Shown here: piece by piece, positions 44,949 to 53,056 of the stretch
Layout of the letters: each line of letters begins with the position of its first letter
Numbering within the stretch: the stretch's first letter is position 1
From: Escherichia coli 042
GTDB taxonomy: Bacteria > Pseudomonadota > Gammaproteobacteria > Enterobacterales > Enterobacteriaceae
Reading direction: 5' to 3' (one strand)
Length of the DNA stretch: 64,000 nucleotides
Assembly: GCF_000027125.1 (NCBI RefSeq)
Contig: NC_017626.1
Notes under the pieces: generated by a model
Database searches by the model: none
What the model was told of the DNA's origin: nothing
What the model saw: only the letters and a program-made list of their open reading frames with translations
Position numbers and translations under genes: made by a program

Positions 44949-45014
44949 GTGATATTACAGAAATTAAAAGTGAACAGTATAATGAGTATTTTCCCCTTTT
45001 GAGAGAGAATAATT

Positions 45015-46025
45015 ATGAAGGCAAAACATTTAATATCGGTTATTTTACTGTCAGGAGTTGTTATGGGAACTGGATTTTGCTCTAACGATAACCAGCAAAA
45101 AATTCGCAGTAAGTTTAATATTGAAGAGTCATATTGTGCCATTAAGACTAATGGCGTCCTCGGGTTCAGTAACCGAAGAAGTGCCTGGCGGGCAAATGGT
45201 GATTCAACCGGGGCCATATCCAGCACCAATGCCATGATGCTGATGGCGAATGGAGAAAATGAAATCAGTCTGGAGATTGGGGCATTAGGATGGTTTTCTG
45301 ACAAGCCTGCCAGTATGGAAGAACGGGGGCGTTTTTTTCCAAAAGCAGGATGCAGCCTGGATTTGGTTCGTTTTATTAAACAGGAGGAAACGCTGCTTTC
45401 TTCAATAAAAGTGACCATCAACCAGCAGGGCATACCTGAAGCCCGGCCAGACAGCGTGCATCCCGTTATCCGGAAAGAGATTTTGGCTGAGCAGGCGGAG
45501 CCAGGATTTATTGATCCAGATTATTTTGATGAAACCTATTTCCCGAAAGGGATGAAGGTGTATCAGTTCACTCAAAAAGTTACCGTGACAGGGCTTCCTG
45601 AATGGGCCTGGACGCGGGCAACCCCCTATACCGGAAGCGACGAGCAGTTACGGAAGTTAAAAGCCGCCTATACCGAAATGGCAAGCATCATCAGTAGCCG
45701 GGACAGGGCACGTCTGAAAGCTTATAACAAAGAGGCGCTGAAGGCATGGTCAGCCACAACCGGTGACTCTGAGGATGACATATTACTCTCACTCTTCTCA
45801 AAAGATAATGTGGAGGGAGGGAAAGCCAGAATGCAGCCCATCAGGTGGGACGATTATGCCGTCCGGGTTATGAATGGTGGACGTATGGTGCAGCTATATA
45901 ATAAATCGAAACCAATATATTCCCCACTGACTTACCGTTTTACAGATGAAAGTGGTGAAGAGCGTATGGGGTATTACGCTCCGGTATTTTCGCTGATTGA
46001 TGGTCAGTTTATCCCTGTTACTTGA
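45015..46025 (+). CDS. Hypothetical exported protein, candidate cognate immunity protein
   Basis: 336 aa with N-terminal signal peptide (MKAKHLISVILLSGVVMGTGFC); immediately downstream of the candidate effector. Confidence 0.5.
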   Translation: MKAKHLISVILLSGVVMGTGFCSNDNQQKIRSKFNIEESYCAIKTNGVLGFSNRRSAWRANGDSTGAISSTNAMMLMANGENEISLEIGALGWFSDKPASMEERGRFFPKAGCSLDLVRFIKQEETLLSSIKVTINQQGIPEARPDSVHPVIRKEILAEQAEPGFIDPDYFDETYFPKGMKVYQFTQKVTVTGLPEWAWTRATPYTGSDEQLRKLKAAYTEMASIISSRDRARLKAYNKEALKAWSATTGDSEDDILLSLFSKDNVEGGKARMQPIRWDDYAVRVMNGGRMVQLYNKSKPIYSPLTYRFTDESGEERMGYYAPVFSLIDGQFIPVT

Positions 46026-46337
46026 TTAACCTGTTGGGCTACAAATCAGGATGTCCGGTAAGGTGATTATTACTGAGTTAAGCACCTTACCGTTTTTTAA
46101 ATTTTTTGTCGCTGATATTCCAGACAGGAAAACAATATGCCTTTAGCTGCCAGATTAAACGACAAAGGTACCGGCACAGGGAAAGATCACGTAACGCTGC
46201 TTTTTTGTACTAAATAATTCGCATTTTATGTTTAAAATTTGAGATATTCCTCATTACCTGAGGCTGTTTTTTATTACTTATACATGATCAAATACTCCTT
46301 ACATAATTAAGGGGAACAAAATGGAACTTAAAAATTG

Positions 46338-47262
46338 ATGGAACATATTTCTGTTATTCCCGATTACAGACAAGCCTGGAAAGTGGAACATAAATTGTCG
46401 GATATTCTACTGTTGACTATTTGTGCCGTTATTTCGGGTGCAGAAGGTTGGGAAGATATAGAGGATTTTGGGGAAACACATCTCGATTTTTTAAAACAAT
46501 ACGGTGATTTTGAAAATGGTATTCCTGTTCACGATACCATCGCCAGAGTTGTATCCTGTATCAGTCCTGCAAAATTTCACGAGTGCTTTATTAACTGGAT
46601 GCGAGATTGCCATACTTCAGATGATAAAGACGTCATCGCAATTGATGGAAAAACGCTCCGGCACTCTTATGACAAGAGTCGCCGCAGGGGAGCGATTCAT
46701 GTCATTAGTGCGTTCTCAACAATGCACAGCCTGGTCATCGGACAGATCAAGACGGATGAGAAATCCAATGAGATTACAGCTATCCCAGAACTTCTTAACA
46801 TGCTGGATATTAAAGGAAAAATCATCACAACTGATGCGATGGGTTGCCAGAAAGATATTGCAGAGAAGATACAAAAACAGGGCGGTGATTATTTATTCGC
46901 TGTAAAAGGAAATCAGGGGCGGCTTAATAAAGCCTTTGAGGAAAAATTCCCACTGAAAGAATTAAATAATCCAGAGCATGACAGTTACGCAATGAGTGAA
47001 AAGAGTCACGGCAGAGAAGAAATCCGTCTTCATATTGTTTGCGATGTCCCTGATGAACTTATTGATTTCACGTTTGAATGGAAAGGACTGAAGAAATTAT
47101 GCGTGGCAGTCTCCTTTCGGTCCATAATAGCAGAACAAAAGAAAGAGCCAGAAATGACGGTCAGATATTATATCAGTTCTGCTGATTTAACCGCAGAGAA
47201 GTTCGCCACAGCAATCCGAAACCACTGGCACGTGGAGAATAAGCTGCACTGGCGTCTGGACG
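46338..47262 (+). CDS. ISAs1-family transposase (H-repeat-associated protein), exon 1 of intron-interrupted gene
   Basis: Matches the intact copy at 49523..50659 up to ...[14 protein letters not shown] 1 nt shorter A-run than in copy 2 removes the MELKKL leader, so the start shifts to the ATG at 46338. The ORF-track tail [10 protein letters not shown] is intron-encoded read-through. Confidence 0.75.
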
Positions 47263-49153
47263 GTGTGCCGCAGGAACACAAGATAGCTGCATAAGGATAC
47301 GCAGTTAGCTTTTGTATAAGCTCATAAAGAGATGGTGGAAGGCCCACCGGGATCGGCTGTCGGAAGCAGATTCCAAACCACTTCATGCTGCTGTGGTAAA
47401 GAGCCATGGTAGTGAGCGATGAAGTAAAGCGTGAGTGAAAACTCAGCAGGTAAGATACTCATGAGACGAGTGAACCCGAACCCATGTTGACGCGTCGTAA
47501 ACCAGAGACTGACATCAAAACCGAAGGGGCGTCCAGCCTTCGGGATAAGTCTGCGAGTGAATTCCGAATGCTGCGCAGACGGTGTCCGGCGTAAAGTGGG
47601 CGTGACGGAGTATCAGGCTCTTCCTGGGAACTGCGGGAACCTGTCGTTGTGATGATAAGGGAGAAATGCAAGTCACTGAATTGGCGAGCATGAAAGTACC
47701 GATGCACAGCACAGGGACGGAGCCGTTCGTAGTAGTGATGAAGCTTCTGTAATGGAGGTGGAGCGAAGGGGCGGCATCAGACAGTCTTTGGACAGTGTTC
47801 AACTGAACATGTTCAGGAGGAGACAATGACAAAGACAAAAGCGTTTAACATTGATAAGTCACTGGTGGTCAGCGCGTACAGGCGAGTGAAGACCAGTGCA
47901 GGCGCGGCGGGAATTGATAAGCAATCGCTGGCGGACTTTGATAAACGGTTAGTTGATAATCTGTACAAAATCTGGAACCGACTTTCTTCAGGAAGTTATT
48001 TCCCACCGGCAGTGAAAGCGGTGGCAATTCCGAAGAAATTGGGTGGAGAGAGAATTCTGGGTATCCCGACAGTCAGCGATCGTATCGCGCAGACGGTGGT
48101 AAAACTGGCCTTTGAGCCACAGGTTGAGCCACATTTTCTGGCAGACTCTTACGGCTACAGACCGAATAAATCGGCACTGGATGCTATAGGGGTAACGCGT
48201 AAGCGTTGCTGGTATTACGACTGGGTACTGGAATTTGACATCAAAGGGCTGTTCGATAACATCCCGCACGAACTGATAATGAAAGCCGTGGACAAACACA
48301 ATCCGGCCCGGTGGGTAAAATTGTATATACAGCGGTGGCTGACAGCGCCGATGGTGATGTCAGACGGAGAAGTCAGAGCACGAACAATGGGAACGCCGCA
48401 GGGAGGTGTCATAAGTCCGTTGCTGGCAAACCTGTTCATGCATTATGTGTTTGATAAATGGCTGGCAAAATATTATCCGAAAGTGCCGTGGTATCGATAT
48501 GCTGATGATGGCATTTTGCATTGTCACAGCGAAGCAGAAGCGACTGAAATGCGAGAAGTATTACGCAAAAGATTTAGCGAATGCGGACTGGAAATGCATC
48601 CGGAGAAAACGCGAGTTATCTACTGCAAAGATGGAAGCCGGAAGGGTGATTATGAACATACCATGTTCGACTTTCTGGGGTACACATTCAGGCGACGCGT
48701 AGTAAAGAACGTTAAGCGAAACAGTCTGTTTGTAAGTTTTACCCCCGCAGCGAGCAAATCAGCGCTAAAGGCAATGCGTCGGGAAATCAAAGCGACAGGG
48801 ATAAGGAAAAGAGTGGATTTAAGCATTGAGCAGATAGCGAAATGGATAAATCCAAAACTGAATGGCTGGATAAATTATTACGGGCGATATACCTGTTCGG
48901 AATTATACAGCGTGTTCAGATATATCAATAAAGCACTGGTGAGGTGGGGGCGTAAGAAATATAAAATGCTCAGCCGATACAAGACAAGAGCCTCAAAATT
49001 TCTGGAAGAAATGGCGAAGCGAAGTCCACAGTTGTTTGCCCACTGGCGTCTGAAGATGAGAGGCGGACTTGTTTGATGGGAGCGGTATGAGCCGAGAGGT
49101 TCACGTACCGTTCTGCGAGAGGCTGCGGGGGAGGTTCCTGCGGCCTACTCACC
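47263..49153 (+). mobile_element. Group II intron (about 1.9 kb) inserted in the transposase gene
   Basis: Insert begins GTGTG (GUGYG consensus), contains the RT/maturase ORF in the position of domain IV, has a domain V-like hairpin (GAGCGGTATGAGCCGAGAGGTTCACGTACCGTTC, about 49080..49114) and ends just before the exon 2 sequence seen in the intact copy. Boundaries are good to about 1 nt. Confidence 0.8.
47826..49076 (+). CDS. Group II intron-encoded reverse transcriptase/maturase
   Basis: 416 aa; RT motifs including YADD ([11 protein letters not shown]) and a C-terminal maturase (domain X) region. Confidence 0.88.
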
Positions 49154-49347
49154 TGGTAATGAATGAAGACGACTGCAAAATAAGAAGAGGAAATGCAGCA
49201 GAATTATTTTCAGGGATACGGCACATCGCTATTAATATTTTGACGAATGATAAGGTATTCAAGGCAGGGTTAAGACGTAAGATGCGAAAAGCAGCCATGG
49301 ACAGAAACTATCTGGCGTCAGTCCTTGCGGGGTGCGGGCTTTCGTAA
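49154..49347 (+). CDS. ISAs1-family transposase, exon 2 (C-terminal 64 codons)
   Basis: Encodes [63 protein letters not shown], nearly identical to the C-terminus of the intact copy; joins exon 1 in frame. Confidence 0.75.
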
Positions 49348-49378
49348 TCTTTCCCTGGATGTGAAAAGCAGCTGCGGA

Positions 49379-50669
49379 CAGGGAAAGATCATCAGAAGTA
49401 CACTTTTTGTACTAAACAATTCGCATTTTATGTTTAAAAATTGAGATATTCCTCATTACCTGAAGCTGTTTTTTATTGCTTATACATGATCAAATACTCC
49501 TTACATAATTAAGGAGAACAAAATGGAACTTAAAAAATTGATGGAGCATATTTCTATTATCCCCGATTACAGACAAGCCTGGAAAGTGGAACATAAATTA
49601 TCGGATATTCTACTGTTGACTATTTGTGCCGTTATTTCTGGTGCAGAAGGTTGGGAAGATATAGAGGATTTTGGGGAAACACATCTCGATTTTTTGAAGC
49701 AATATGGTGATTTTGATAATGGTATTCCTGTTCACGATACCATTGCCAGAGTTGTATCCTGTATCAGTCCTGCAAAATTTCACGAGTGCTTTATTAACTG
49801 GATGCGTGACTGCCATTCTTCAGATGATAAAGACGTCATTGCAATTGATGGAAAAACGCTCCGACACTCTTATGACAAGAGTCGCCGCAGGGGAGCGATT
49901 CATGTCATTAGTGCGTTCTCAACAATGCACAGCCTGGTCATCGGACAGATCAGGACGGATGAGAAATCTAATGAGATTACAGCTATCCCTGAACTTATTA
50001 ACATGCTGGATATTAAAGGAAAAATCATCACAACTGATGCGATGGGTTGCCAGAAAGATATTGCAGAGAAGATACAAAAACAGGGAGGTGATTATTTATT
50101 CGCTGTAAAAGGAAACCAGGGGCGGCTAAATAAAGCCTTCGAGGAAAAATTTCTGCTGAAAGAATTAAATAATCCAGAGCATGACAGTTACGCAATTAGT
50201 GAAAAGAGTCACGGCAGAGAAGAAATCCGTCTTCACATTGTTTGCGATGTCCCTGATGAACTTATTGATTTCACGTTTGAATGGAAAGGTCTGAAGAAAT
50301 TATGCGTGGCAGTCTCCTTTCGGTCAATAATAGCAGAACAAAAGAAAGAGCCCCAAATGACGGTCAGATATTATATCAGTTCTGCTGATTTAACCGCAGA
50401 GAAGTTCGCCACAGCAATCCGAAACCACTGGCACGTGGAGAATAAGCTGCACTGGCGTCTGGACGTGGTAATGAATGAAGACGACTGCAAAATAAGAAGA
50501 GGAAACGCAGCAGAATTATTTTCAGGGATACGGCACATTGCTATTAATATTTTGACGAATGATAAGGTATTCAAGGCAGGGTTAAGACGTAAGATGCGAA
50601 AAGCAGCCATGGACAGAAACTACCTGGCGTCAGTCCTTGCGGGGAGCGGGCTTTCGTAATCTTGCCCTG
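49379..50669 (+). mobile_element. ISAs1-family (H-repeat) insertion sequence, copy 2 (intact), in tandem 21 bp after copy 1
   Basis: Inverted repeats CAGGGAAAGATCATC and TTCGTAATCTTGCCCTG at the ends; 1291 bp. Confidence 0.8.
49523..50659 (+). CDS. ISAs1-family transposase (H-repeat-associated protein), intact
   Basis: 378 aa, [50 protein letters not shown]...; DDE-type H-repeat transposase. Confidence 0.88.
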
Positions 50670-50778
50670 GTACAGTAAACAAACGAAAGTTGTTATTTCA
50701 ATGGTCAGGGCAAGAGCATGAAGTGTTTACTACACACTATGCTCTTGTCCTGGAGTCAGGTCTTGTTTGGAGGGATAA

Positions 50779-51282
50779 ATGGTAGATATTGTCGAGGCCG
50801 ATAAAACGGATATTTATTTCATTCAGGAGAGTGTTTATGGCAAAATCGGGTTGCCAGCTTTTGGTAATACAATAGGACCATCCGCACAGCAAGTTGTTAA
50901 AAAGGTATTCGCTGTCGTTAAAGAACGAGATAAGACACATGCAAAACAGAGATTATTGTTGGAATATAATGGTAACAAACTCTGGATGAATGCTATTGAT
51001 GGCAGTGAAGCTATCCTACCAACAGAATTTTCTAAGCGATACGAACTTTCATTATTTAATACTACTAATTTTGGAGAAGATCCTTTTCCTGATGTTAATT
51101 TATATAATAATATGAAATCAAGTTTTTTTGTAAGGTTTGGTGGAACATCCCATCCCGAGGCTTGGGCTATTTATAATGCAAGTACGAAAGAGGTTAAATA
51201 TATAGAAACTGCAAGAGAAATTGATAAAATATTCAGTGATTTTAACTTGAGTGGTACATTGCCAATTCACATTGGTCGATGA
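50779..51282 (+). CDS. Hypothetical protein (no signal peptide), AT-rich
   Basis: 167 aa ORF just right of the IS pair; no recognisable motif; may correspond to the small ORFs that sit between yafT and yafF in E. coli K-12 (unverified). Confidence 0.4.
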   Translation: MVDIVEADKTDIYFIQESVYGKIGLPAFGNTIGPSAQQVVKKVFAVVKERDKTHAKQRLLLEYNGNKLWMNAIDGSEAILPTEFSKRYELSLFNTTNFGEDPFPDVNLYNNMKSSFFVRFGGTSHPEAWAIYNASTKEVKYIETAREIDKIFSDFNLSGTLPIHIGR

Positions 51283-51348
51283 TTTTTTAAATTGTGTGAT
51301 TAAATAATTGAACATTAATGATGATTTATAGCATTATTATTCTATAAC

Positions 51349-51861
51349 ATGAATAAACGGATTGAATGTGTTATGTTAAAAATAAGTTTATACGTAATAA
51401 TATTGTTATTTTCCTTTCAGATTAGTGCAGCCATTACTAGCAAGGAAAGTGAGGTTGTTTCACCATTATTAATGGATGTTAATTCTTCACTAACAATGGA
51501 AAATATTTCTGAATTATCCACATCATCGGAACCATCGCAACAGGGGGTATTTCCTGTAATATGTACTCGACTTCATCCTGGCTCCGTAATGAAACGCCAG
51601 TTATTAACCGGCTGGGGGCCTGTTTTTATAATTGGTGATGATCCTTTTTCTCTGCGCTGGATGAGTGAACATCTGGAGATCCTTAAATCGCTAAATGCCC
51701 TTGGTTTGGTTGTTAATGTTGAATCAGTAGAACGAATGGAGGTATTACAGCAGCGGGCTGATGGGTTATTGTTATTGCCAGTTATCTGCGATAATTTCGT
51801 GCAAACTCTGCAATTAAATGCTTATCCGGTATTAATCACAGAGATGGAAATATCACAATGA
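51349..51861 (+). CDS. Hypothetical exported/membrane protein
   Basis: 170 aa with N-terminal hydrophobic signal (MLKISLYVIILLFSFQISAA); AT-rich; identity not resolved. Confidence 0.4.
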   Translation: MNKRIECVMLKISLYVIILLFSFQISAAITSKESEVVSPLLMDVNSSLTMENISELSTSSEPSQQGVFPVICTRLHPGSVMKRQLLTGWGPVFIIGDDPFSLRWMSEHLEILKSLNALGLVVNVESVERMEVLQQRADGLLLLPVICDNFVQTLQLNAYPVLITEMEISQ

Positions 51862-51887
51862 TTAATAACATAATTACTGCAAATAAT

Positions 51888-52102
51888 ATCGTAATTTTGA
51901 AAATGGTAATCCTGTTCACGGCACCATAATTAGAGTTATGTCTTGTATCCGTTCAGTATAATTTCACGAATGCTTTATTAACTGGATGCGAGATTGCCAT
52001 TCATCAAATGATAAAGACGTCATCGCAATTGATGGAAAAGCGCTTCCACACTCCTATGATAAAAGTGGTCGCAGGGGAGCGGGCTTTCGTAGTCTTAGCC
52101 CG
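51888..52102 (+). pseudogene. yafF: Internally deleted ISAs1-family (H-repeat) remnant, yafF-like pseudogene
   Basis: Matches transposase codons roughly 55 to 118 ([35 protein letters not shown]) fused at a GGGGAGCG microhomology to the last about 20 bp of the IS right end (GGCTTTCGTAGTCTTAGCCCG). Confidence 0.75.
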
Positions 52103-52132
52103 ACTCTCCCCGGCCCTAAACACAACACCCAC

Positions 52133-52912
52133 TCACCACAACCTAAACTCATCCGCATCCCGCCATGCCGGAAACTTTTCTCTATATTCCCGCAATGCCG
52201 CCATCGACAGCTCCGCATCAATGCGCGTTGCCTGATGCGCGTCGGCGGTGGCGATAATCTCGCCCTGTGGATTAATCACCCGGCTGTCACCGCGATAATG
52301 GCAGCCGTTGCCATCGCTGCCGACGCGATTGCATCCCGCCACATACGCTTGATTCTCAATCGCGCGGGCCGTCAGCAATGCCTGCCAGTGCAGAGAGCGC
52401 GGAGCCGGCCAGTTGGCGACGTACAGGGCGAGGTCGTAATCGTTGAGATTGCGCGACCACACAGGAAAACGTAAGTCGTAGCACACCAGCGGCAAAATAC
52501 GCCAGCCGCGCCATTCCACAATCACTCGCGCATTGCCCGCTTTATAATGCAGATGCTCATCTGCCATGCGGAACAGATGACGCTTATCATAAAAATGTAC
52601 CGTGCCGCCTGGCTCAACCAGCAAAAAGCGGTTAACCGAACCAGACTCCGTTTGTAATGCAACACTGCCTGCAATCAGCGCATTGCACTGCTGCGCTTTG
52701 GCTGTCATCCAGTTCACTACGTCATCTTGTGCTAGCGACGAAGCTGCCGCTTCCATGGCAAAGCCGCTGGTAAACATCTCCGGTAGAACGATCACATCGC
52801 GTCCGGTAATATCTTCCAGTTGACGATCAAAATGACGCAGGTTGGCAGGACCATCCATCCACACCAGTGGTTGCTGCAAAAGCGTAATCTTCAAACCAGG
52901 CACGGTGTACAA
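52133..52912 (-). CDS. yafV: Omega-amidase / nitrilase-superfamily hydrolase YafV
   Basis: Carbon-nitrogen hydrolase fold (catalytic Cys in VCYDLRFP); the start may be the GTG three codons in, at 52903. Confidence 0.88.
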
Positions 52913-53056
52913 CTCCTTTATGCGAAGGGTTTTATAACTTTAACACCTTATCAGGCAGTTGCCTTAGCGCAGAATAAATTGATAACAAATGCTGATATTG
53001 GAAATATCTGATTTGCAAATTATCGTGTTATCGCCAGGCTTTAGGAGGTTAATAAC

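Follow-up and report, generated by a model that had tools for sequence, protein, structure and literature searches.

Two ISAs1/H-rpt copies, a group II intron, and scars of older elements at the yafV border of the T6SS-1 island of Escherichia coli 042

Introduction

The closest described relatives of the repeats reported here are the H-rpt/ISEc1 elements of the Escherichia coli Rhs loci, represented in K-12 by yhhI, ydcC, ybfD/ybfL/ybfQ, and yafF. These elements are about 1.29 kb long, carry CAGGGAAAGAT... terminal repeats, lie distally, where Rhs/T6SS effector cassettes end, and often form defective, tandem, or fragmentary arrays, such as ybfQ-ybfD. Jackson et al. reportedly described the ‘C-terminal displacement’ of Rhs and orphan toxin/immunity arrays in 2009. 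Displacement and orphan arrays are cited in PMC3032704, in which H-rpt transposition is stated not to have been observed. In displacement arrays, older modules move to the distal side, where they decay; H-rpt marks this end of the locus.

RmInt1 of Sinorhizobium meliloti is the model class D group II intron; it homes into the transposase gene of ISRm2011-2. In E. coli, the class D intron E.c.I2 is said to target the Rhs IS (= ISEc1-5) (PMC3522654). Its copy E.c.I2-1 in UMN026 spans 269264-271154 (1,891 bp), ‘in a Rhs region’ (PMC3522654 Tables S2, S3), and E.c.I2 was recorded as strain-specific in 2012 (PMC3522654).

In this study, we describe how the aspV-yafV T6SS-1/Rhs island of E. coli 042 ends at yafV, a border that lies in a window (the whole stretch of DNA analyzed) of 64,000 nucleotides. 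An original prediction, made from the sequence letters, had placed two H-repeat copies and a reduced third copy at this border. We consider it highly probable that this interval represents the right margin of the island in a decayed state, composed of four ISAs1/H-rpt pieces of different ages and one retroelement.

Methods

Profile matches were taken from Pfam, NCBIfam, and Rfam, and annotation from RefSeq. As the original prediction had proposed, the copies were aligned pairwise and the same locus was compared in other E. coli strains. Junctions were surveyed in 5,426 complete E. coli genomes. The unoccupied homing site was located by pattern search. EBS candidates came from a complementarity scan, and their assignment and positions within the intron fold are putative.

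Results

Border of the island

The predicted position of the repeats at the right boundary of the island held in the RefSeq annotation: T6SS genes lie upstream, and a core gene follows directly. The features surrounding the IS copies are as follows.

46137..46176, plus strand: first 12 codons (MPLAARLNDKGT) of a truncated T6SS PAAR gene and a further 4 nt (GGCA), directly adjoining copy 1 at its left end
50779..51282, plus strand: orphan ORF of 167 aa, without family match
51349..51861, plus strand: PFL_4695-family integrating-conjugative-element (ICE) protein (DUF2859), 170 aa (Pfam PF11072, 2e-28; NCBIfam TIGR03765, 2e-35)
52133..52912, minus strand: yafV, 2-oxoglutaramate amidase (Pfam CN_hydrolase, RefSeq), the first core gene outside the island

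Pfam and NCBIfam profile searches with the 167-aa ORF gave zero matches. The DUF2859 gene is an isolated ICE relic. In an alignment with the PAAR gene that is intact in strain DA61218 (L011 3260-3544), homology ended at 46172, and the left edge of the stack truncates the gene of 042 after codon 12. In DA61218, the gene runs on into a module of VgrG and M35 peptidase. The truncation bears out the earlier suggestion that this zone had shaped the island, and the PAAR stub shows loss of the distal part of the T6SS effector array at this locus. The cassette adjoining copy 1 is of the VgrG/DUF4123/effector type and has no Rhs core.

Two diverged ISAs1 copies

46177-49358, plus strand: ISAs1/H-rpt copy 1, whole, 3,182 bp, split by an intron at 47262/47263
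46177..47262, plus strand: copy 1, 5' part (IS positions 1-1086), intron 5' exon, with left inverted repeat CAGGGAAAGATCACG
49154..49358, plus strand: copy 1, 3' part, intron 3' exon, ending in right inverted repeat CGTAATCTTTCCCTGG
49379..50670, plus strand: copy 2, ISEc1-like, 1,292 bp, with both inverted repeats (RefSeq: ‘ISAs1-like element ISEc1 family transposase’)
49523-50659, plus strand: copy 2 transposase ORF, intact, 378 aa

Copies 1 and 2 belong to the ISAs1 family, as originally assigned; transposase type, size (1.2-1.3 kb), and terminal inverted repeats (CAGGGAAAGAT on the left, its complement on the right) all fit. The copy 2 ORF scored 413.9 bits against the NCBIfam ISAs1 transposase model NF033564 (cut-off 70). 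The copy 1 ORF (46335-47294) matched Pfam DDE_Tnp_1_assoc and DDE_Tnp_1 and is an ‘ISAs1 family transposase’ pseudogene in RefSeq. PF13808 and PF01609 matched both copies. In transposase family (NF033564; DDE_Tnp_1_assoc and DDE_Tnp_1), length, terminal repeats, and position, there is no essential difference from the H-rpt/ISEc1 elements of the Rhs loci. What is particular is the stack itself: an intron-bearing copy, a 20-bp relic, an intact copy, and a remnant.

The head-to-tail arrangement on the plus strand with 20-21 bp in between agrees with the original prediction, but the near-identity of the copies does not. Copy 1 is 3,182 bp rather than about 1.3 kb because a 1,891-bp group II intron splits it; this intron, the largest feature of the interval, was missing from the earlier picture of a tandem pair. 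Copy 1 without the intron (1,291 bp) differs from copy 2 at 53 of 1,292 aligned positions (95.9% identity), with no differences in alignment columns 1000-1099. The first 25 bp past the inverted repeat also differ between them, and copy 1 is nearer to an element of strain 19A14 (97.6%) than to the neighboring copy 2. The likeness of the repeats (1.29 kb, 96% identity) is well beyond chance, and RecA-dependent deletion can likely act on direct repeats of this size and identity.

Duplication of one IS in situ, or expansion or collapse of a repeat in the assembly, would leave what is seen at first sight, namely two copies in one orientation, head to tail, with a very short spacer. However, the copies differ by 4.1%, the 1,891-bp intron is in one copy only, the sequences after the inverted repeat are unlike, and the spacer comes from a third allele (see below). 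Copies that are only 95.9% identical without the intron speak against a recent duplication, and a pair that is not near-identical gives no sign of an in-situ one. The earlier concern about an assembly artefact is excluded by 168-172 independent assemblies, since 168 complete genomes hold the whole 6.5 kb at about 100% identity. Divergence, intron, spacer origin, and assemblies together effectively refute duplication or artefact, which we regard as extremely improbable. Copies 1 and 2 thus appear to have arisen independently, not by tandem duplication.

The predicted 1-nt contraction of the A-run in copy 1 was recovered in the alignment as A5 (46330-46334) versus A6 in copy 2, at codons 4-5. 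The A5 tract gives rise to a mini-ORF (MELKN-stop) whose TGA overlaps ATG 46338 (Met7). Because of this frameshift, the copy 1 transposase likely starts at Met7, and it is predicted to need intron splicing; the joined exons give a restored reading frame.

A complete group II intron in copy 1

47263..49153, plus strand: complete group II intron, 1,891 nt, GTGTG...CTACTCACC, a clean insertion relative to copy 2 with unambiguous boundaries
47489-47493, plus strand: candidate EBS2, GACGC, opposite exon GCGTC
47530..47536, plus strand: candidate EBS1, CGTCCAG, able to pair with CTGGACG, the final 7 nt of the 5' exon
47826..49076, plus strand: intron-encoded RT/maturase, 416 aa, YADD at residue 225 (Pfam RVT_1, 1.5e-39; GIIM, 7e-16)
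50452..50473, plus strand: homing site for E.c.I2 left unoccupied in copy 2, CTGGCGTCTGGACG^TGGTAATG, with the same sequence as the exons flanking the intron in copy 1

The ribozyme matched Rfam RF01999 (D1-D4) at 47334-47451 (105.5 bits, gathering score 36) and RF00029 (D5-D6) at 49078-49153 (58.3 bits, gathering score 40), both over the full model length, and the intron starts with GTGTG; on these grounds it carries the hallmarks expected of a group II ribozyme (5' GUGYG, domains V and VI, the latter with a bulged A). The RT/maturase scored 412 bits against NCBIfam TIGR04416 (cut-off 300). Pfam gave no match for an endonuclease domain (HNH/En) in this protein, whose ORF stops about 28 residues past GIIM (residues 314-388). 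The exact protein occurs in at least 1,000 public contigs. The candidate EBS1 is supported by a Methylobacter relative, in which the equivalent intron position covaries with its own exon.

Judged by length, locus, host element, and class rather than by alignment, the intron appears to be E.c.I2, a bacterial class D intron that is itself already described. The two share the length of 1,891 bp, the host element, the neighborhood at about 269 kb beside yafV, an RT/maturase lacking En, a single copy per genome, and free homing sites that are unoccupied. In contrast to the strain-specific record of 2012, the intron here was found in 172 complete genomes. In the rows inspected, each genome had one intron copy, and a perfect empty site lies 3.2 kb away; this combination suggests low or no mobility at present. 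On a more tentative reading, the failure of E.c.I2 to colonize this perfect site, which has the same orientation, in all inspected rows of the 172 genomes would amount to natural evidence for silencing or immobility of this class D intron in E. coli.

The intron also resembles RmInt1 in its length of about 1.9 kb, in an IEP of about 416-419 aa without En, and in homing to an IS transposase gene; the host IS family and the EBS/IBS sequences differ. Plasmid matches of the intron were rich in Sinorhizobium and Rhizobium records.

Origin of the spacer

49359..49378, plus strand: spacer between the copies, ATGTGAAAAGCAGCTGCGGA, 20 bp (21 bp if the IS end is set at CCCTG)

Rather than neutral DNA, the spacer is a fragment of another ISAs1 element. 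It is an exact 20-mer (26/27 with flanks) of a degenerate ISAs1 at the same locus of strain MS 110-3 (L006 5874-5900), where it falls in the 3' interior at about IS positions 1226-1245. Elsewhere, the MS 110-3-type allele is single-copy, and an 80-bp query spanning it gave 556 matches, 371 of them at ≥95%. The spacer sequence was absent from copy 1, copy 2, and another ISAs1 fragment of one tandem-bearing genome. By this comparison, the spacer is a relic of an older, diverged ISAs1 element. No single simple event accounts for a 20-21 bp relic with a right IS end on one side and a left IS end on the other.

A right end facing a left end over a short spacer recalls the active (IS)2-type transposition intermediate. 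In the (IS)2 junctions of IS21, IS30, and IS911, the copies are identical and the spacer is a few bp. Here, the copies are 4% diverged (95.9% identity), one of them carries both a frameshift and the intron, and the 20-21 bp between them come from the interior of an IS; moreover, 172 genomes stably inherit the structure. The tandem dimer was rejected on these grounds, and we give it almost no weight.

Nested transposition would account for the spacer differently. Copies 1 and 2 would each have entered a resident older ISAs1 at sites 20-21 bp apart, and IS-mediated adjacent deletions would later have stripped away what else there was of the older element, along with neighboring DNA that included most of the PAAR gene. 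In line with this, the spacer is an exact piece of an older allele found at the same locus in other strains and is precisely bounded by right and left IS ends; copy 2 keeps an intact transposase ORF and both inverted repeats. Precedents exist in the abutting H-rpt pieces ybfQ/ybfD at RhsC and in NCTC86, where a left-end fragment of about 80 bp lies upstream of the full element. Yet no target-site duplication flanks either copy, at any of the four IS ends (flanks GGTACCGGCA / ATGTGAAAAG and AGCTGCGGA / TACAGTAAAC), an absence that bears on the arrival of the copies and not on their family membership. In addition, H-rpt transposition is recorded as not observed (PMC3032704), at least four events are needed, and the constant co-occurrence of the intron with both the left and the tandem junction fits import as one block at least equally well. 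We therefore regard nested transposition as possible, but doubtful.

The remnant beside yafV

51881..52106, plus strand: ISAs1 remnant of about 225 bp, 1.2 kb downstream, at the position of K-12 yafF (RefSeq: ISAs1 fragment)

The third, reduced copy was found where it had been predicted, 1.2 kb downstream, with a length of about 225 bp instead of about 215 bp. It joins IS positions about 320-519 to 1263-1292. An origin from a different IS family, against which the remnant was checked, was not borne out: a 197-201 bp segment aligned to ISAs1, as did the right end. Compared with each full-length copy, that segment shows only 82-85% identity, and the right inverted repeat is degenerate (CGTAGTCTTAGCCCGA).

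The junction lies exactly within the 8-bp GGGGAGCG, at 52074-52081. As predicted, this sequence also occurs within the transposase genes of copy 1 (46687) and copy 2 (49890), and copy 2 has it at the right end as well (50641), where copy 1 has GGGGTGCG in its place. In simulated random deletions of copy 2, microhomology of ≥8 bp had P = 2.4e-4, which is consistent with the proposed microhomology-mediated deletion. The remnant is also truncated on the left, so one internal deletion cannot alone explain it. Since the 197 bp diverge by 15-18% from all full-length copies, we deduce from conservation in other family members that the ancestor of the remnant probably carried both GGGGAGCG repeats.

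The same junction could have formed through illegitimate recombination that joined an old diverged ISAs1 copy on the left to the yafV-adjacent H-rpt, with loss of the intervening DNA. The left 197 bp, only 82-85% identical to all known copies, would then come from the first, and the right 30 bp, which share derived substitutions with the K-12/NCTC86 element (interior 97-99% ISEc1-like), from the second. However, the right end departs from the canonical repeat at 5/16 positions in the remnant and 6/16 in K-12/NCTC86, four of them shared, while the K-12/NCTC86 interior is only about 3% diverged, so that this end appears old and this interior overwritten. An old interior beside an old end fits a single old element, and the 8-bp microhomology junction is identical under either version. 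Recombination between two copies is thus rather unlikely, and deletion within one old element is the reading followed below.

The right-hand chromosomal junction of the remnant is also present in K-12 and NCTC86; NCTC86 has a full-length H-rpt at the yafV junction, and its degenerate right end shares substitutions with that of the remnant. In ABU 83972, the island is different, yet DUF2859-remnant-yafV is retained. The remnant is ancient, and its deletion is not a recent event of 042, since roughly 20% of the complete E. coli genomes share it, B2 strains with a different island among them.

Distribution in E. coli

The remnant junction was present in 1,095 of the 5,426 complete genomes, the block of 167-aa ORF, DUF2859, and remnant in 542, and the right junction of copy 2 in 387. 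The tandem junction and the intron were each found in 172 genomes and the left junction in 173; these three always co-occur. The whole 6.5 kb at about 100% identity was carried by 168 genomes from different hosts and countries. The full stack is therefore one haplotype, in about 3% of complete genomes. Among the genomes surveyed, there was neither an intron-less copy 1 nor an older element with a nested copy 2.

Discussion

The anatomy and distribution described above are observations; the order of events and their mechanism are what we infer from them. Because intermediate haplotypes were not found, the order is drawn from nested genome counts, which recombination could distort. In the oldest layer, the first ~320 bp of an H-rpt beside yafV would have disappeared where it meets the ICE-derived gene, in the line that led to the window, and IS positions 520-1262 would have been deleted between two 8-bp GGGGAGCG repeats by slipped-strand or short-homology recombination, leaving the remnant of about 225 bp. 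In the middle layer, an ISAs1 element would have stood upstream of the 167-aa/DUF2859 block; 20-21 bp would survive as the ‘spacer’, its place now being taken by the intact ISEc1-like copy 2. Copy 1 would be the youngest layer, abutting the present VgrG/DUF4123/effector cassette and truncating the PAAR gene. E.c.I2 may have retrohomed into copy 1 through EBS1/EBS2 pairing with GCGTC-TGGACG, immediately 3' of the catalytic E motif in the transposase gene.

Tentatively, the stack can be read as a stratigraphy in which effector cassettes of the T6SS-1 island were replaced one after another, H-rpt copies providing a portable right-hand homology every time. The yafV-adjacent H-rpt of NCTC86 and K-12 has an interior 97-99% identical to the ISEc1-like copy 2, and its last 12-16 bp are old and degenerate, with substitutions common to the remnant. 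A young interior with an old end is expected if IS-internal crossovers repeatedly overwrote the DNA to the left. As in the Rhs displacement arrays, older modules are shifted distally and decay at the locus end marked by H-rpt; here, in contrast, IS copies and an ICE gene are stacked in place of rhs tips, and the cassette lacks an Rhs core.

The stack is ordinary mobile-DNA debris, a known kind of structure; we ascribe no cellular function to any part of it, and it leaves the current understanding of IS elements, group II introns, and T6SS islands unchanged. Its value is in annotation: the interval is not simply two IS copies, a complete retroelement sits within one IS, and the ‘spacer’ and ‘remnant’ are scars of older elements. 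The nested counts (1,095, 542, 387, and 172) provide junction markers with which to follow the rebuilding of the aspV-yafV island in different E. coli lineages.

Tandem ISAs1 copies

Positions 45600-53000 were read directly and screened with a repeat finder, which returned three related stretches, all on the + strand. The anatomy was fixed by four-way alignment and global alignment. The third stretch is the remnant beside yafV (51881-52106); the tandem pair is laid out as follows.

46177-49358, + strand: copy 1, 3,182 bp, left end CAGGGAAAGATCACG at 46177 and right end CGTAATCTTTCCCTGG at 49358
49359-49378, + strand: spacer ATGTGAAAAGCAGCTGCGGA, 20 bp between the copy 1 right end and the copy 2 left end
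49379-50670, + strand: copy 2, 1,292 bp

DDE_Tnp_1_assoc and DDE_Tnp_1 domains were present in both copies, and the intact 378-aa ORF of copy 2 scored 413.9 bits against the NCBIfam ISAs1 transposase model. The copies are H-rpt elements of E. coli Rhs loci. According to PMC3032704, H-rpt transposition has not been observed, and no target-site duplications were found around copy 1, copy 2, or the pair taken as a composite.

The original prediction described two nearly identical copies 21 bp apart. The distance agrees once the terminal G of the right end is left out of the IS; otherwise it is 20 bp. The near-identity does not hold, and copy 1 is well beyond 1.3 kb. Alignment of the copies revealed a single clean 1,891-bp insertion in copy 1, at 47263-49153. 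With the insertion removed, 53 of 1,292 columns differ (95.9% identity, global alignment), 14 of them within the first 100 bp. The sole remaining gap is an A5 tract in copy 1 against A6 in copy 2, which confirms the predicted 1-nt contraction.

At 46321-46340, the A5 frameshift yields a 5-codon mini-ORF, MELKN* (ATG GAA CTT AAA AAT TGA), whose stop overlaps, as TGATG, the ATG at 46338. This ATG is transposase Met7 and the RefSeq pseudogene start of the copy 1 transposase. As read from the sequence, a near full-length copy 1 transposase could still be made via termination-reinitiation at TGATG once the insertion is spliced out.

A comparable arrangement was seen at the RhsC locus of strain 258E (L007 1704-3060), where ybfQ (IS positions 1-381) abuts ybfD (1-911 fused to 1225-1291) with no spacer. 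ybfD has also lost an internal segment, at a short GAAA(G/A)G homology, so H-rpts in tandem and with internal deletions occur repeatedly.

A group II intron in copy 1

Its conserved domains identify the insertion as a complete group II intron, the largest feature of the interval and one missed by the original prediction. Full-length Rfam matches were obtained to group-II-D1D4-2 at 47334-47451 (105.5 bits) and to the D5-D6 model at 49078-49153 (58.3 bits); in a scan of 45000-53000 at E ≤ 0.1, nothing other than the intron domains was detected. The intron starts with GTGTG at its 5' end and contains the following elements.

47489-47493, + strand: candidate EBS2, GACGC, complementing the adjacent exon GCGTC
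47530-47536, + strand: candidate EBS1, CGTCCAG, complementing the last seven 5'-exon bases CTGGACG
47826-49076, + strand: RT/maturase ORF, 416 aa, RVT_1 and GIIM domains, TIGR04416 at 412 bits (cut-off 300), YADD at residue 225

The complementary stretches are putative EBS1/IBS1 and EBS2/IBS2 pairs. A profile search of the 416-aa protein gave no match to an endonuclease domain. Joining the copy 1 exons restores the transposase sequence; thus, the intron lies in the sense strand, eight codons past the conserved HVEN motif.

An intron end at 49152 (...CAC, the canonical AY ending) was considered instead of 49153. It was rejected because the spliced exons would keep an extra C relative to copy 2, because the published intron length is 1,891 bp, and because a Methylobacter relative shares the 3' end CTACTCACC.

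Identity and relatives of the intron

E.c.I2-1 has been described by Leclercq & Cordaux as a full-length class D intron "in a Rhs region" of UMN026, at 269264-271154 (PMC3522654), a span of exactly 1,891 bp. The "Rhs IS (= ISEc1-5)" is the target of both E.c.I2 and E.c.I9, at two different positions (PMC3522654). By its length, its locus, its host element, and its class, the window intron is most probably this already described E.c.I2. RM14516, of the same haplotype, has its RT gene at 269.7-271.0 kb. In our search, no literature joining a group II intron with "H-rpt" by that name was found.

The exact RT protein was present on at least 1,000 public contigs, among them "E. coli O17"; O17 is the serogroup of UMN026. 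Sinorhizobium and Rhizobium records were abundant among the plasmid matches of the intron, which fits class D; RmInt1 is a class D intron.

The intron was single-copy in the genome rows inspected, and copy 2 has an identical empty homing site at 50452-50473 in the same orientation. A single copy beside a free site agrees with the low site occupancy reported for E.c.I2, UMN026 carrying a single copy and four unoccupied homing sites (PMC3522654).

A plasmid of Methylobacter sp. YRD-M1 (L009 1088-4120) carries an intron with 71% identity over the full length. It also lies within an ISAs1 transposase gene, but eight codons further upstream than in E. coli, and its EBS1 position is altered to match its own exon. 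This covariation and the shared 3' end lend support to the predicted boundary at 49153 and to the EBS1 assignment. The association of this intron lineage with ISAs1 must therefore be old, with retargeting along the way.

Directly upstream of the yafV-adjacent H-rpt of NCTC86 (L003 3430-3682; also in approximately 2,000 E. coli genomes), three pieces lie in order: a diverged fragment of an IS left end (approximately 80 bp), a left-repeat copy of 15 bp, and a 5' piece, approximately 155 bp long, from a related group II intron. The intron fragment has 86% identity to window intron positions 54-156 and probably corresponds to the published E.c.I9 fragments, suggesting the IS left end as the homing target of E.c.I9.

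Distribution across E. coli genomes

Occurrence of each part among 5,426 complete E. coli genomes
Remnant junction: 1,095
167-aa/DUF2859/remnant block: 542
Copy 2 right junction, counting also a variant longer by 50 bp: 387
PAAR/copy 1 junction: 173
Tandem junction: 172
Intron at ≥ 99% identity: 172
Whole 6.5 kb: 168

Given these counts, the tandem arrangement is real, stable, and inherited as a single haplotype. An IS3 was found within the intron in one genome, and an IS1 at the left junction in another.

Origin of the spacer

The spacer 20-mer is identical (26/27 with flanks) to L006 5874-5900, part of a degenerate ISAs1 of MS 110-3 that occupies the position of copy 2. The match falls in ordinary IS interior, the copy 2 counterpart of which is ATGCGAAAAGCAGCCATGGA. 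An 80-bp query spanning the MS 110-3 allele hit a single place in 556 other genomes, at 95% or above in 371. Copying from another ISAs1 of a tandem-bearing genome was tested with the fragment near yddH in DG351-2, which carries a different allele; the spacer allele was also absent from copy 1 and copy 2. The spacer is therefore a fourth piece of ISAs1, left over from the element whose place copy 2 has taken. It could have been placed between a right and a left end by nested transposition with adjacent deletions, or by import of a block joined via illegitimate recombination at a shared CAG.

MS 110-3 also has 50 extra bp (CAAGGGATGATAAAAAGTGCAACTTT...) at L006 5950-6000, which separate the IS right end from the shared flank TACAGTAAAC; approximately 215 genomes carrying the older IS allele have them. 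These bases bear a weak resemblance to another IS left end, which would give a further abutted right-end/left-end pair.

The remnant

The remnant aligns to IS positions approximately 320-519 and 1263-1292, with the switch inside GGGGAGCG at 52074-52081. This octamer occurs at IS 512-519 in copy 1, copy 2, ybfD, and CD45, and at IS 1263-1270 in copy 2, K-12, NCTC86, 19A14, and CD45; copy 1 has GGGGTGCG there. When 200,000 random deletions were simulated on copy 2, junction microhomology of at least 8 bp arose with P = 2.4e-4. The predicted deletion at an 8-bp repeat is therefore a fair reading. It is old, because the junction is found in 1,095 of the 5,426 genomes (90-100% identity), including the B2 strain ABU 83972, which has an unrelated island yet keeps DUF2859-remnant-yafV.

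At its degenerate right end, CGTAGTCTTAGCCCGA, and in the flank that follows, the remnant matches K-12 yafF and the full-length NCTC86 H-rpt beside yafV (window 52074-52106; L002 3599-3890 in K-12; L003 4945-4975 in NCTC86). The three thus descend from one insertion. Up to position 1280, the K-12/NCTC86 interior shares 97-99% identity with copy 2; the last 12-16 bp alone are degenerate and have substitutions in common with the window remnant. The remnant interior is 15-18% diverged from every copy. We infer that the K-12/NCTC86 interior was overwritten by recombination with younger copies and that the window retains the old sequence; the pattern looks like repeated interior overwriting with the old IS end kept. 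No close full-length relative of the 197-bp remnant segment was found, and origin from a distinct, still-extant E. coli ISAs1 subfamily was dropped, the best paralogues (ybfD, ISEc1-type copies) reaching 82-89%.

The island border

In the RefSeq annotation of an identical locus, the order is: tssA ... tssB, Hcp, VgrG (pseudogene), a DUF4123 protein, two hypothetical proteins, copy 1 with ltrA, copy 2, the 167-aa hypothetical protein, the PFL_4695 ICE protein (DUF2859), the ISAs1 fragment, yafV, ivy, and fadE. The IS stack thus forms the right-hand limit of the aspV-yafV T6SS-1 island. This locus is the b0215-b0221 interval, in which a Rhs locus has been listed (PMC3032704). The non-IS features of the border are as follows.

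46137-46172, + strand: T6SS PAAR gene stump, first 12 codons, MPLAARLNDKGT, at the left edge of the stack (46137-46176, just left of copy 1)
within 50779-51861, between copy 2 and the remnant: orphan gene for a 167-aa protein without family match
within 50779-51861: orphan gene for a lone PFL_4695-family ICE protein (TIGR03765/DUF2859)

Strain DA61218 retains the whole PAAR gene, with a VgrG and an M35 peptidase downstream of it, so the stack marks where a distal effector module has been lost. The original prediction of a recombination-prone border holds in general terms, as do most of its details apart from the near-identity of the copies and the missing intron. All components are of known kinds, namely H-rpt arrays at Rhs/T6SS loci, E.c.I2 in a Rhs IS, and short-homology deletion. 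Both orphan genes are conserved together with the remnant in 542 genomes, and in ABU 83972 an ICE gene fragment persists beside the remnant despite the unrelated island.
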